A stretch of DNA of 61,616 nt, the filler included, from Squatina squatina (lineage: Eukaryota), in the NCBI GenBank assembly GCA_031763465.1. It is 3 parts of 3 records of this genome, joined end to end, with 100 filler letters (N's around TTAATTAATTAA, not from the genome) between each part and the next. Parts side by side here need not be neighbours in the genome. Positions count along the whole stretch, not along the records: positions 1 to 28,162 come from JARFOE010000115.1; 2 more parts are not named here. The stretch is one strand, 5' to 3'. This document shows, one piece after another, positions 5,095 to 51,322 of this stretch. Positions within the stretch are counted from its first letter, which is position 1, and each line of letters starts with the position of its first letter. Position numbers and translations under genes: made by a program. The notes beneath the pieces are model-generated. The model was not told the origin of the DNA. It saw nothing but the letters and a program-made list of their open reading frames with translations, and did no database searches.

Positions 5095-5185
5095 AATTTG
5101 GATGATCAGCCATGATCATATTGAATGGTGGAGCAGGCCCGAAGGGCCGAATGGCCTACTCCTGCTCCTATCTTCTATGTTTCTG
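5095..5185 (+). mobile_element. CR1 LINE 3' UTR/tail
   Basis: GATCAGCCATGATCATATTGAATGG..GGGCCGAATGGCCTACTCCTGCTCCTAT..TTCTATGTTT is a typical CR1 3' end. Confidence 0.85.
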
Positions 5186-5450
5186 TCCCTGGGATTGAAT
5201 CCTTCACCACAGTGAACAATCTACCTTGACCAATTTTGTCAGTTGACTTCATAATAATTTGTGTCACGACCTCTGAAGGAAAATATCCAAGCCTTGTACC
5301 AGTCTATTATGTTTCTTGAAAAAACCTGATTATGTAATCAAGTGTTCCAAGGGGTGGGAATACTCTCTGTTGGGACTACTCGCTTCTCCAGCCCTGGGAA
5401 GGATCCACTGTAGGTGAGACCATATGTACCAGAGACTCGGGACTGGGTGT

Positions 5451-5624
5451 GGGGGCAATTTTAACCTAACCCAACCATCGGGATACTGCCAAGATTGAGT
5501 TCAATGATTGTTTTACACCCCACCCGATCTTACTCTCTGTTGAAGTCAAGAAGAAGAATTTTGGGTGAGGTGTAAAAACCGCATTCCACCCAACCCGTGG
5601 AGGAGTTAGGGTAAAATTACTCCC
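5451..5624. mobile_element. ~175-bp palindromic MITE (Harbinger-like)
   Basis: Imperfect TIRs GGGGGCAATTTTAACCTAAC / GTTAGGGTAAAATTACTCCC, internal inverted repeat TTTTACACC..GGTGTAAAA, flanks TGT/TCT. Confidence 0.7.
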
Positions 5625-5778
5625 TCTGTGTGTGAGGTTCATGCACAAGCAATTTTTCCATTGTTGGCAAATTCATCCTATCATATAAAGACGGCAAAAT
5701 AACATCAGTGGTATATTTACCATAAAATTAAGAGGGAGCCAGGAGTCATATTCATGAGCTGAAGCTTGTGTGTCACCT

Positions 5779-6539
5779 CTATGAGGTAAACATCCAGTTC
5801 CTCCAGCTTTTCTTCAACCTCAGCAAAGCTAGGTCAACGTCTGCCTGTTTCATTTTACACACCATCTCCCTGTCATCCCACTTCGCATCCTTCCTCACTA
5901 CCAGCAGACTTGTGAAAATGTCTGGCAGCTTGCCTTCTGAACTAGTATAAGGAGAGGCGGTGTGGAACCAATTATTGTTCTTACAGTTATCAAGAAACTC
6001 ATTCTTTATGGCTGCCACATCAGCAATTTCCACTGCTGCTTCAGATACAACCTGAGCACACGGATTGATTGATGCAGAGCCAGCAATATCACTAGTGCGG
6101 CTTCTGCAGTCCAAAGTGGGTGGTGGCTGGCCCATTCGTTCTACCTTCACACCATTGTCTCTTACAATTGAAGCTGTTTCTTTCACATGACTGCCTACCA
6201 TCACCTCATAACCATCATTGTTGTTCAGTTCCAGGTCCCAGGCTTTTAACCGCTGTGTGGAGACCAAGTTTTGCAAAGCAGTTACTTCTGCTGCTCGTCC
6301 ACTCTCCTGCTGAAACTCAGCAGGTTTTGAAGAGGCCTTGCCCTTCTGTTCAGCTAAGCAAGAGTTTGAAACAGCATTTTCTGCCGCTTCCAATGCATTG
6401 TTCAGGATATCAGCCAAGTCCAGGCTATTGTCTGCCGTCTCACAGGACAGCTCAGTCTCACCTAGCATTTTATCACACACATCTGATGCTCCGTTATGAA
6501 CAGACATCCACAATTTTGTCGGGACTTGCAGAGTTTCAC
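5779..6539 (-). CDS. Large ORF/exon fragment resembling the formin-1 isoform-IV-specific exon, inside the FMN2 locus (5' part lost in gap, ends in TAG)
   Basis: About 250 open codons. 5815-5928 encodes LPDIFTSLLVVRKDAKWDDREMVCKMKQADVDLALLRL, which aligns without gaps to the recalled FMN1 isoform IV motif LPAFFSGLRVLKKGATAEGGETITEIKPKDGDLALLKL. Confidence 0.6.
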
Positions 6540-6639
6540 NNNNNNNNNNNNNNNNNNNNNNNNNNNNNNNNNNNNNNNNNNNNNNNNNNNNNNNNNNNNN
6601 NNNNNNNNNNNNNNNNNNNNNNNNNNNNNNNNNNNNNNN

Positions 6640-7930
6640 CATTGGAAGAAAAGTCAAATCCATTTTGTGAGAATGCCACATCACTCACAGGACCATTGCC
6701 CACCTTCAGGCGGTGTTCAGCAGCAGTTTCTATGGAAACCTGCCTCTCGTTTACTGCAGCCTCTAGACGCTCTGCATTTGCACTAAATCCGTTATATTTA
6801 GCTAAAGTGCTGTAAGGTTCCTCAGTTTTAGTCTCCGTCTCGTCCTGCTCCTGAAGGCTCTCGAGAGAGGCAAGGCTTCCTACCTTGCTGGCCTTTGATG
6901 AGACATGTTCCACATCAGGGACGTTTTCTTTGTTGTCAGTGCCCGCCAGGACTACAAATTGCTCAGTTTGCAGGAGGTTTTCAATTTCTTTCTCCCGTGT
7001 TTGCCGTTTCTCAGCAGCTGCGCTGATTGACCCCTGCTGCAGCTTAATGGCATGCTGAATATCAGAGAGCAAATCCTCATGTTCTGCAGCTGAATGAAAG
7101 CTGTAAATATCTGTATCCGAGCCAGAGCTAACCCTTTGTCCGTCCTGGAGCTCCGAAGCAGCTGGGAGGCTGTCGTTAGTGATGTCTAAATGCTCGGCTT
7201 CAGTGTCCGACAGGCCCCCTTCATCAGCAGAAATGCTTATATCCGGAGTCTTTGTAACCGAATGGATGCTGTCTAGTTCTTCAGTGGGCAGGGCCGGATT
7301 TTCCAATATATCATCCTTTGATCCGCCGGTGCCATTTTTACCCCGTGACAGCGGTTTTCTCTTCCTAATGGAGAAGACCGATCGAGAAGACTCAGATTTC
7401 TTCCGTCTGTTGCCGTCACTTCCCTTGCCGTGTTTAGCGTGTGTTTTCTTCCCTCCCGACCCTTTCTTTGTGCCATCGGTATCCTTGGGCCTAGCATCCT
7501 CCACGCATTCCTGCCCGTCCCCTCCAGCCTTTTTCAGCTTCCCGTCCTGGTTGCCCATGTTGCCGAACGGCCAAAAGCTCTTCGCCCTCAAGCCATGCTC
7601 AGCCTCCCGGGTCCTGTCCGGCAGTGCCGAGCCGTTCGCTGCTCCAGCTGTAGTCTTGGCACCTCCCGGAGAGGCAGGGAAAACAGCCGCTCGCTCGGTG
7701 CCGGAGATTCTCCCATCTGCTGTTGCAATCTTTTTGCATAATGTGGTCCCCTCCTCTGGGACATGCTCAGTGCAGTCAGTGCTTCTGCACGGGCTGTGAA
7801 CAAACAGCCTGGCAGCTTTCCCCACACAAGGGGTGAAGCACTTCTCGGTGATGTTGTCAGTCAGTCTCTCCACTGTGTGAATGGCTTTCATAGTGGAGTC
7901 GGCATTTCTTTTAAAGAAGAGAAAATCCAT
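6640..7930 (-). CDS. FMN2: Formin-2, first coding exon (3' part lost in gap); canonical [12 protein letters not shown] at 7558, upstream in-frame ATGs at 7891 and 7930
   Basis: FMN2 motifs [41 protein letters not shown] and [22 protein letters not shown]. Acceptor (T/C)n-CCAG just before 7990. Same strand as and next to CHRM3, as in other vertebrates. Confidence 0.93.
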
Positions 7931-8980: not shown

Positions 8981-10556
8981 TCAGGAAGCCTCACAAGGAA
9001 TTCTTTTATGGAAAACAACAGCTTGTCTTGGTTGATACTGTTGTCTGCGCCTTTTTCTCTTTTCCCATTGACAAAGCAGTAACATTTTGAAAGTGTTTCT
9101 GAAGGTTTTGTTGCACAGTGCATAGCACATGGGATTCACAGTGCTGTTGACATAGCACAACCAATAGCCTAGGCGCCACAGTGCTTCACGAATGCATTTG
9201 TCACAAAATGTGTTTACCAGTACCATTATGTTATAAGGTGTCCACGTGATAATAAAGGCAAGTAAAATTGCACTGAGTGTCTGCGCAGCCTTTTTTTCTT
9301 TTACAAGTGACATTCTTTTGCGCTTTGTAGTCTGACTTCTTGTCTTCGAGGCAAATGCTTTAGCAATTGTGGCTTCTCTGAAAGACAAAGGCATAGACGT
9401 GGATGACCTTGCTTAAGATGCAATTCCTCCAGAAGTCTTTGAAGGATGGATTGATGGCATTGACTGAACAGGAAGCTTGCCAAAATGCTGGTGGAAGCTA
9501 TTGCCTTGCTCATCTGAGTCTTTGAACTGTTGTGATCTGAATTTTCTTTCCTTTTCATTAACATCTGCTTTGGCAAGTTCATCACTGCAAAGATCCATGT
9601 TATCTACATTTGTGGATTTAGATAGGCTGGCAGCTGTCTTAAGCCCAGGTAGGTTTAACACAATGGAGTAAATTGCTCTTGTTTCTGATACTGCATCATC
9701 CTCATCAGATGAAGCTGAATGATCCAAAGAGCCACCACCATCATTGTTGTTCCAACTATCACTGCTGCTTGGCTCTTGTTCACCCTCAGTGCTAGCCCTC
9801 CATGTTTTTGTGGTTGGCCAAAAGTGGCACCTTCCATGCCGTCTTCTATCTTTCATTCCTGCCCGCTGCAGTTCGTTGCTGCTGCAACTCCTGGAACTGC
9901 CTGTTTGAGGAACAAAGTGTGTGGTTTCCATGTCACTGGTAGAGGCCTGGAGAGCTGCCAGTTCTTTGGTGCGTTTCTCAGTTTCCTTGTAGATTCTCCA
10001 GTATAGGATTGTCATGATGGTGACAGGCAAGTAAAATGCAGCAATGGCAGTACCAAAAGTAATTATTGGTTCAGATAAAAACTGTATGGAGCATTCATCG
10101 GGCGACACAGTTCTTTCACCAACAAAATATTGCCAGAACAAAATGGCAGGGGCCCAGAGTATAAATGAGACTATCCAAGCCAGGCCAATCATTATTCCAG
10201 CTCTTTTGGGCGTTCGTTTAGCTCTGTAGGTGAGTGGTCGTGTAATTGATAAGTATCTGTCAAAACTTATAACTAGAAGATTCATGACAGAGGCATTGCT
10301 GGCAACATAGTCAATGGCAAGCCAAAGGTCACATGCTACGTTGCCTAAAGCCCATCTGTCCATTATGATGTACGTCGTGTACAGGTTCATTGAGATCACT
10401 CCAATTATCACATCTGCAAAGGCGAGACTTAGAAGAAAGTAATTGTTCACTGTTTTTAATTGTTTGTTCACCTTAAATGCAACCATAACAAGAATGTTTC
10501 CTATGATCGTCACCAAGGAGAGTATTCCTGTGAAGAATGCAATCAAAACAACTTGC
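8981..10556 (-). CDS. CHRM3: Muscarinic acetylcholine receptor M3, intronless CDS (N-terminus in gap), interrupted by an in-frame TAA at 9413-9415; possible pseudogene or sequence error
   Basis: TM1-TM5 (GNILV, LAFAD, DYVASN, DRY, AAFYLP) and TM6-TM7 ([22 protein letters not shown]) lie in one frame. M3-type i3 and C-tail ([21 protein letters not shown]). FMN2 synteny. Confidence 0.93.
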
Positions 10557-19674: not shown

Positions 19675-19934
19675 TAGAAACATAGAAAATAGGAGCAGGA
19701 GTAGGCCATTCGACCCTTTGAGCCTGCTCCACCCACAATGAGATCTTGGCTGATCGTCCAAATTCAGTACCGTGCTCCTGCTTTCTCCCCATATCCCTTG
19801 ATCTCTTTAGCCACAAGAACTAAATCTAACTCCTTCTTGAATATATTTAATGATTTAGCCTCAACTGCCTTTTGTGGTAGAGAATTCCACAGGTTCACCA
19901 CTCTCTGGGTGAAGAAATTTCTCCTCATCTCAGT
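19675..19934 (-). mobile_element. CR1 LINE 3' end
   Basis: AGAAACATAGAAAATAGGAGCAGGAGTAGGCCATTCG tail and GGTAGAGAATTCCACAGGTTCACCACTCTCTG (reverse of the VVNLWNSLP motif). Confidence 0.9.
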
Positions 19935-49933: not shown

Positions 49934-50501
49934 TTAAAGAACCAAATGGGTGTAAATCCTCTTACTCTGCGCAAAACCAGTTAATAGGAATTTATTTTAG
50001 AATCTAGAAAGATGAGCNNNNNNNNNNNNNNNNNNNNNNNNNNNNNNNNNNNNNNNNNNNNNNNNNNNNNNNNNNNNNNNNNNNNNNNNNNNNNNNNNNN
50101 NNNNNNNNNNNNNNNNNCTTAATCCAGTCTTTCTTTCCCTCTGTATTTCTTTTTCTGTATCTGATTTGACATTCAATTTACCCCCTCTAATTCACTTTCC
50201 TTCTCAGTCCTTGCACTCTTTATTTCTCAATCCTGTAATCCTATTAGTGAAGGAGATGCACTGTTTGTTCCATTGTTCACCAGGCTCCCAGGTGCCTGGT
50301 TGTCCTCACGCCATTAGCAGCTCGCACTTCCAGCAAGTTAGTGAGCAAAAACTGTTAAAACCTAAACGTGCACGAACGGTGCAGGCTCCGCTCCAGCAAA
50401 ATCTGGGCCAATGCGACATCTTATCTCAAAATGGCTACGATCATTTTTTTTAATCATTTGGTGACTCTTTTTAATGGTAATTAAAAAATGTATGTACTTA
50501 C

Positions 50502-50827
50502 AGCCAACCATCATCATAGCCACAGAAAATATCTTCTCCCCATCCGTCGTAGGAGCAATGTTGCCAAATCCTATTGTGGTAAGGCTTGTCATGGTAAAGT
50601 AAAGGGAAGATATATACAGTGAATCCTTTGTGGGTCCCCCTTCCCACTGTCCGGTGCCACTGGCATTAAAGTGGTAGGGTGTTCCAATACTTAGTCCCAG
50701 TTGATAGAGCCAGCTGTCTGTTTTTATTCTGTTGGTGACTTCATCGATGACCTCGTAGTCCCCGATACTGTACCATATGCAGGCGAGCCAATGAGCCACT
50801 AAGCCAAAAACGCAGACCAGGAGTACC
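50502..50827 (-). CDS. KCNH5: KCNH5, exon 7 equivalent (5' part in gap): S5 and pore
   Basis: [49 protein letters not shown]; donor GTAAGT. Confidence 0.95.
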
Positions 50828-50929
50828 NNNNNNNNNNNNNNNNNNNNNNNNNNNNNNNNNNNNNNNNNNNNNNNNNNNNNNNNNNNNNNNNNNNNNNNNN
50901 NNNNNNNNNNNNNNNNNNNNNNNNNNNAC

Positions 50930-51322
<393 letters not shown>

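Follow-up and report, generated by a model that had tools for sequence, protein, structure and literature searches.

A predicted alternative first coding exon of FMN2 in Squatina squatina, related to the N-terminus of FMN1 isoform IV and cut short in the assembly

An ORF on the minus strand of the Squatina squatina window (the whole stretch of 61,616 nt that was analysed) appears to be most of an alternative first coding exon of FMN2. The exon would lie between exons 2 and 3 of the gene, as a paralogue of the first exon of FMN1 isoform IV that was inherited from a pre-duplication formin, and it is cut at 5808 in this assembly. We give this reading, which was drawn from sequence comparison, a probability of about 0.75. 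In cartilaginous fishes and bichir, such an FMN1-IV-like second start of FMN2 is a real and probably undescribed variant. In the portions of the literature on FMN formins that were consulted (PMC2423616, PMC11231147, PMC3459857, PMC5047451, PMC12159680, and PMC8533766), no description of the exon or the motif in FMN2 was found. The alternative exon is already latent in automated gene models and is shortened in this assembly.

Orthology of the ORF to an FMN2 exon

The window is a series of contigs of 0.3-3.4 kb, mostly linked by gaps of 100 N. Since the contigs are merely joined in this way, distances in the window are not real. Along the minus strand, KCNH exons come first and CHRM3 next; the 5' part of FMN2 exon 1 follows, separated by a gap from the ORF-carrying contig 5095-6539. 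The features were as follows.

5809-6539, minus strand: main part of the predicted alternative first coding exon of FMN2; codons start at 6537 and the orthologous part ends at 5808
5815-5928, minus strand: 38-aa motif common with the FMN1 short-isoform (IV-type) N-terminus; 39 bits with the FMN1-only profile
5779-5808, minus strand: breakpoint 5808/5807 and non-orthologous read-through to the TAG at 5781-5779; both relatives diverge here
5606-5772, no strand assigned: DNA matching other contigs of relatives C and D, not their exon contigs, in the alignment of the relatives' contigs
6540-6639, no strand assigned: 100-N placeholder gap separating the ORF contig 5095-6539 from the FMN2 exon-1 contig
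6641-7558, minus strand: the 306 codons at the 5' end of canonical FMN2 exon 1, which is truncated at the gap; four shark FMN2 proteins are 80-86% identical
7559-7930, minus strand: in-frame codons upstream of MGNQDGK that other cartilaginous fishes also keep
8987-10556, minus strand: CHRM3, the upstream neighbour; best solved-structure match M3 with 231 bits vs. M5 with 179 bits

CHRM3 adjoins FMN2 in other vertebrates. The CHRM3 gene is open except for an in-frame TAA at 9413-9415 (minus strand) in the third intracellular loop, which is a base-call error or a nonsense allele and suggests errors in this assembly. Three exons of an EAG-type potassium channel at 49643-51322 (minus strand) matched KCNH5 best, with 185 bits compared to 177 bits for KCNH1, and KCNH1 rather than KCNH5 would be expected on an FMN2 chromosome. 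Since this gene is slightly nearer to KCNH5, the scaffold order cannot be taken on trust.

Counted from MGNQ, exon 1 has 306 codons here compared to 500-518 in all five relatives compared. Exon 1 and the alternative exon were the only FMN2 exons present; exons 2, 3 and later ones were found nowhere in the window. The gap at 6540-6639 must conceal the predicted ATG (7 nt in), about 205 exon-1 codons, intron 1, exon 2, and more.

The earlier note had described an ORF of about 250 codons on the FMN2 strand, past the first coding exon, with a stop soon after the motif. Both were found. Across the 100-N gap from exon 1, the minus-strand ORF is open for 251 codons from the gap edge at 6537 to 5785, and is followed by TCA and a TAG stop at 5781-5779. 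It was 56-58% identical over 233-255 aa to the FMN2 models of bamboo shark and whale shark and 37% identical to those of chimaera and skate, while the likeness of shark FMN1 to the ORF was confined to the motif.

A single-sequence search of 1.84 billion representative proteins gave three hits, namely a bamboo-shark protein, a chimaera FH2 protein, and a contig product nearly identical to part of the skate model. The cluster mate of the bamboo-shark hit is the RefSeq fmn2b isoform X2 (XP_072436673.1, Chiloscyllium punctatum). This protein and chimaera A0A4W3J5D1, the best hits, both start in the exon and are joined to the exon-3 peptide. The exon is also carried by whale shark XP_048457305.1 (314 aa), skate XP_032882262.1, and bichir KAG2467518.1. 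Moreover, a region search with the bamboo-shark isoform matched 15 of 79 candidates, all of them cartilaginous-fish FMN2 and none FMN1. A word-based search of the ORF among longer proteins gave no match in 3820 candidates, Pfam assigned the ORF to no family, and the protein atlas held no usable match.

The FH2 domains linked to the exon were compared. A profile search gave 261 matches among 2959 candidates, the best 120 of which split into five on the FMN2 side and 115 in the FMN1 set. About 27-30 bits in its E-values (measured on FMN2) stem from an FH2 row that served to enlarge the pool of candidates. These E-values were therefore not taken as evidence for the motif, and the FMN1-only profile described below takes their place. 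The FH2 anchor was present in 126 of 133 long proteins, 16 FMN2-like and 110 FMN1-like, and bichir was classed separately as FMN2. Pairwise identity was used instead of FH2 trees, in which midpoint roots were misleading and the bichir branch was long from a non-homologous C-terminus. The FH2 domains of the bamboo-shark, chimaera, and skate models were 88-91% like the FMN2 references and 57-58% like FMN1, and that of bichir was 68-71% like FMN2 and 60-61% like FMN1. An FMN2-type FH2 was joined to the exon in all three full-length cartilaginous-fish models and in bichir.

The bamboo-shark and chimaera models begin in the exon with MCG (MCGG/MCGE). Their reading register agrees with that of the opening codons of the contig, which would place the ATG here 7 nt inside the gap; the whale-shark model starts later than MCG. 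In the skate and bichir gene models the exon lies between FMN2 exon 2 and exon 3, so that two of the five named FMN2 models make it internal rather than first, all isoform structures in the relatives being automated gene models. These results indicated that the ORF is, on sequence grounds, the orthologue of an FMN2 exon in bamboo shark, whale shark, skate, chimaera, and bichir, and we regard this orthology and the linkage to FMN2 in gene models as established.

The contig could otherwise be a mis-scaffolded piece of FMN1, or the remainder of FMN2 exon 1 beyond the gap. It is linked by a placeholder gap only, exon 1 is open at this gap, and the KCNH5-leaning match makes the scaffold order doubtful. 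However, the ORF resembles the FMN2-linked models over its whole length and shark FMN1 in the motif alone, and a separate FMN1 copy is present in six sharks and rays, clustering apart from the FMN2 copies. The genuine remainder of exon 1, known from 14 relatives, is unlike the ORF. Both possibilities were rejected and are very improbable, short of an error in every one of the public FMN2 models. An origin of the contig 5095-6539 in the FMN1 locus, which the earlier note had named as fatal to its reading, is not the case, the orthologues being linked to an FMN2-type FH2.

The 38-residue motif and the ancestry of the exon

The motif corresponds to residues 204-241 of the ORF (5928-5815). A gapless match of this block to the N-terminus of FMN1 isoform IV, as noticed in the earlier note, was seen again in 14 of 14 FMN1 proteins tabulated, with 15-20 identities of 37-38 to the FMN1 short-isoform N-termini. 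A profile was built from 99 of the 115 FMN1 N-termini with no FMN2 sequence included, and with a slight bias since the FMN1 set was gathered through the motif itself. Only one of 2594 translated pieces of the window matched it, which was the ORF (39 bits, E 6.6e-11), and 20 shuffles reached at most 5.3 bits. The same profile gave 34-38 bits with bamboo shark, 34 with whale shark, 16-21 with skate, and 11 with bichir, whereas the chimaera model had no score and none of 14 canonical FMN2 proteins exceeded 0 bits. The profile alignment spans positions 295-360 of 511 and is reliable for the motif alone. No other conserved FMN1 block aligned in the ORF, and the homology is limited to about 40 residues.

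Among the matches listed, all 115 FMN1-set proteins paired with the motif, with E-values of at most 0.003 in a set of 138 proteins. The single-sequence search of 1.84 billion proteins had no FMN1 among its three hits, so that by itself the motif falls short of significance in a database of this size. The significance on which the earlier note had staked its match was thus upheld by the FMN1-only profile but not by the single-sequence search. By its profile score, the 38-aa motif is a case of true homology to the FMN1 short (isoform-IV-type) N-terminus, and we count it as such. According to the part of PMC2423616 consulted, a mouse Fmn1 exon-6 primer encodes KFSMKS. The pattern FS[MV]K occurs within the first 80 residues of 19 of the 115 FMN1-set proteins, and the two together tie the FMN1-set forms, indirectly, to isoform IV.

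Identity in the motif alone does not tell the paralogues apart (skate FMN2 21/38, tarpon FMN1 20/38). In a motif tree of 39 columns the 14 FMN1 copies formed one clade (99) with the five FMN2 copies outside; the matches listed (120 of 261) included nothing from lamprey, amphioxus, or mammals, and this tree is therefore unrooted. The distance from the motif to the shared xxPG was 37-58 aa in FMN2 and 92-161 aa in FMN1. The order MGN[QE][DE]GK, motif, shared exon was found in seven FMN1 and two FMN2 gene models, as models and not as genomic DNA. Furthermore, as in FMN1, the xxPG..Q..WPP block is preserved in exon 3 of FMN2 from cartilaginous fishes and bichir, and in bichir GLKYTEAE is as well, so that the shared exon is visibly homologous in FMN1 and FMN2.

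This common layout, which we also count as established, would fit an ancestor with two N-termini. The earlier note had proposed such an ancestor, and the motif homology and the layout speak for it, but that the exon was retained from this ancestor rather than transferred early between the paralogues is what we infer. A transfer of the motif exon from FMN1 to FMN2 by conversion or duplication after the genes split would agree with the mere 40 or so residues in common, with the rootless tree, and with the lack of the motif in all 14 canonical FMN2 proteins. It is nevertheless quite improbable, as the shark, skate, and bichir FMN2 copies group together outside the FMN1 clade, which would put any transfer before cartilaginous and bony fishes diverged, and the position of the exon before the homologous shared exon is identical in both genes.

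The second N-terminus, which the earlier note had proposed for shark FMN2, reaches further, at least to skate, chimaera, and bichir. Mammalian FMN2 is not known to have such an exon. The description of the exon as live or decaying splits by lineage, since the frame is kept in the relatives and the 3' end is missing here. The chimaera model leaves the exon midway along the motif and includes an additional short exon, which is a model error or independent erosion, and the bichir model contains only a short piece of the exon. A broader account has, in our estimate, an even chance of being right: the founding vertebrate formin would have had two N-termini, both inherited by FMN1 and FMN2, cartilaginous fishes would still express an FMN1-IV-like short FMN2, the motif, retained by the two paralogues from before the jawed-vertebrate split, would be an unrecognised regulatory or targeting element of the isoform IV N-terminus, and its repeated erosion in FMN2 (truncated here, reduced to half in the chimaera model and to a remnant in bichir, and not known from mammals) would record a division of work between the two genes.

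The break at 5808

Contigs from 4 of 12 listed sequencing runs were aligned to 5560-6539. The DNA of two relatives (C and D) covers 5808-6539 and is about 87-89% alike, with one replaced stretch in D; each relative has 753 nt compared to 732 here (net +21 nt), and the frame is kept. The contigs of both relatives match the window as far as 5808 and diverge exactly there. A hand translation of the 30 bases that follow in them keeps to the main frame and is similar to the tails of the bamboo-shark, whale-shark, and skate models, and beyond 5808 the contigs extend for 1.5 and 1.8 kb unlike the window. The relatives' contigs that match 5606-5772 have 0.9-1.0 kb of unlike DNA before it, and a stretch of about 35 nt at the junction is matched by the contigs of neither side. 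On this comparison, the exon appears cut at 5808 here, with the last 30 or so codons and the donor missing, through a real deletion or a mis-join.

A shifted frame leading to a donor near 5777 had been suggested as the continuation of the exon, and an indel in the A-run at about 5808-5814 had been suspected. The sequence does contain both the peptide of the shifted frame and the AG|GTGACA site (GT 5776-5775), and GT 5776 is phase 0 in the shifted frame. But they are not supported as the true end of the exon, since the relatives use the main frame and the shifted frame scored at chance against orthologous tails (P 0.13-0.99 overall): P was 0.17-0.83 in local alignment with four tails, and 0.13, 0.17, and 0.99 in frameshift-aware alignment with three. 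No likeness to the orthologous tail above chance was found in any frame past 5808. The suspected indel was not confirmed either, for the relatives read through the A-run in the main frame with no base missing (12 of 18 indels shown), and the rescue by a shifted frame was rejected. By eye, the shifted frame faintly resembles the lost tail and ends near GT 5720, at most 2 nt from the orthologous length, and it may be a heavily decayed tail. The donor-like GT 5720 lies within 5606-5772, and GT 5776 just outside.

Most likely, the exon was cut by a deletion that spanned at least 2.4 kb and brought it next to downstream DNA. The isoform was probably lost here with this real lesion, at odds a little better than even. 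Distinctly less probable, but a serious competitor, is an exon that is intact in the animal and broken at 5808 by a mis-join or local error of the fragmented short-read assembly. The small contigs, the in-frame TAA of CHRM3, the 251 open codons of the exon body, and the two relatives that keep the frame and continue normally are in favor of such an error, while the junction lies within a contig and not at a gap, no repeat is common to both sides, and the 35 or so unmatched nucleotides would fit a repaired deletion. Moreover, 8 of 26 changes listed as common to C and D were silent, which does not depart from the 25% expected under neutrality (P 0.5), although these are a weak, selected sample, picked by the tool from 141 places; at 7 of 18 replaced sites both outgroup sharks agree with the relatives. 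Continued use of the exon through another donor is unlikely. Candidates exist in the phase-0 GT 5901, 5898, and 5862 within the motif and in the shifted-frame GT 5776 and 5720, the first of the latter in phase 0, and the chimaera model likewise leaves the exon inside the motif. However, 5776 and 5720 come after the main-frame stop, the relatives read the A-run in the main frame, and the internal donors would cut the sole conserved motif.

The predicted isoform and known formins

In the relatives a second promoter would, we infer, drive transcription of the alternative exon. Translation is predicted to start with MCG at the exon's own ATG and to run for about 285 codons, followed by a phase-0 splice to FMN2 exon 3. 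The product would be a shorter formin with the coiled region, FH1, FH2, and tail, in which the canonical N-terminus is swapped for a disordered one, with the 38-aa motif as its sole conserved feature. The exon would go back to the one formin that existed before the duplication, and would have survived in cartilaginous fishes and, in part at least, in bichir. The structure prediction of the exon product was disordered (pLDDT 51), with the first half of the motif and one helix as the best-defined stretches (about 71-73). A predicted complex between the motif and the FH2-tail dimer, for which the alignment was not used, scored 0.00 and is uninformative. The motif could be a short binding element that sets the placement of the isoform or how it is held off, a proposal that we consider evenly balanced. 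Contigs of putative RNA cover only the repeat at 5561-5596 and not the exon, and contigs cannot show absence; those of another run cover 5576-5726 alone and are uninformative on expression.

The closest known counterpart is Formin-1 isoform IV as described in the consulted part of PMC2423616, likewise an alternative first coding exon after long N-terminal exons and before the shared exon, with the 38-aa motif in a disordered context. In contrast, the exon here belongs to FMN2 and would have about 285 codons compared to about 400-700 in FMN1, one motif is in common, and the stretch from the motif to the shared exon is about 100 aa shorter in FMN2. The five models named above (XP_072436673.1, A0A4W3J5D1, XP_048457305.1, XP_032882262.1, and KAG2467518.1) are direct orthologues joined to FMN2 exon 3; they are automated models labelled 'uncharacterized' or plain formin-2, and have the 3' tail and donor that are missing here. 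Canonical FMN2, which starts with MGNQDGK in exons 1-2, is the same gene and identical from exon 3 onward. Residues 275-734 of mouse FMN2 were reported to be autoinhibitory (cited second-hand in the part of PMC12159680 consulted), and the alternative isoform would omit exons 1-2 and so part of this region.

The N-terminus of Drosophila Cappuccino is similar by description, as an FMN-family and largely unstructured region, and it autoinhibits in Cappuccino. In the passages of PMC3459857 consulted, Capu-NT has no predicted motif, FMN N-termini are called poorly conserved, autoinhibition is reported for Fmn1 and Cappuccino, and N-terminal control in formins of the FMN family is described as open, partly as these regions look unconserved. 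Mouse Fmn1-IV has known kidney and cell-spreading phenotypes, and its presence at adherens junctions is disputed (both from the consulted part of PMC2423616). The 38-residue block kept in both paralogues would be a precise target for deletion and pull-down work in mouse Fmn1-IV. The exon is also a clear example of how an alternative first exon can be retained through a genome duplication and afterwards disappear unevenly, and it would allow public FMN2 models of shark, skate, and bichir that miss, split, or fuse it to be corrected.

In addition, about 124 in-frame codons precede MGNQDGK at 7559-7930 and are kept in several shark and ray FMN2 models, and a catshark protein aligns from its own residue 1 at window position 7930. 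Ahead of the same MGN[QE][DE]GK motif, bichir has 141 residues and seven FMN1 models have 100-117. A Tim10-like Pfam match in 7559-7930 was weak (E 0.17) and not significant. Inverted repeats of 27 nt, 120 nt apart, were found at 5451-5624 and match several contigs of the relatives, as in a MITE-like element. A 90-nt repeat common to 5095-5184 and 19676-19764 (88% alike) is probably the tail of a SINE or LINE.
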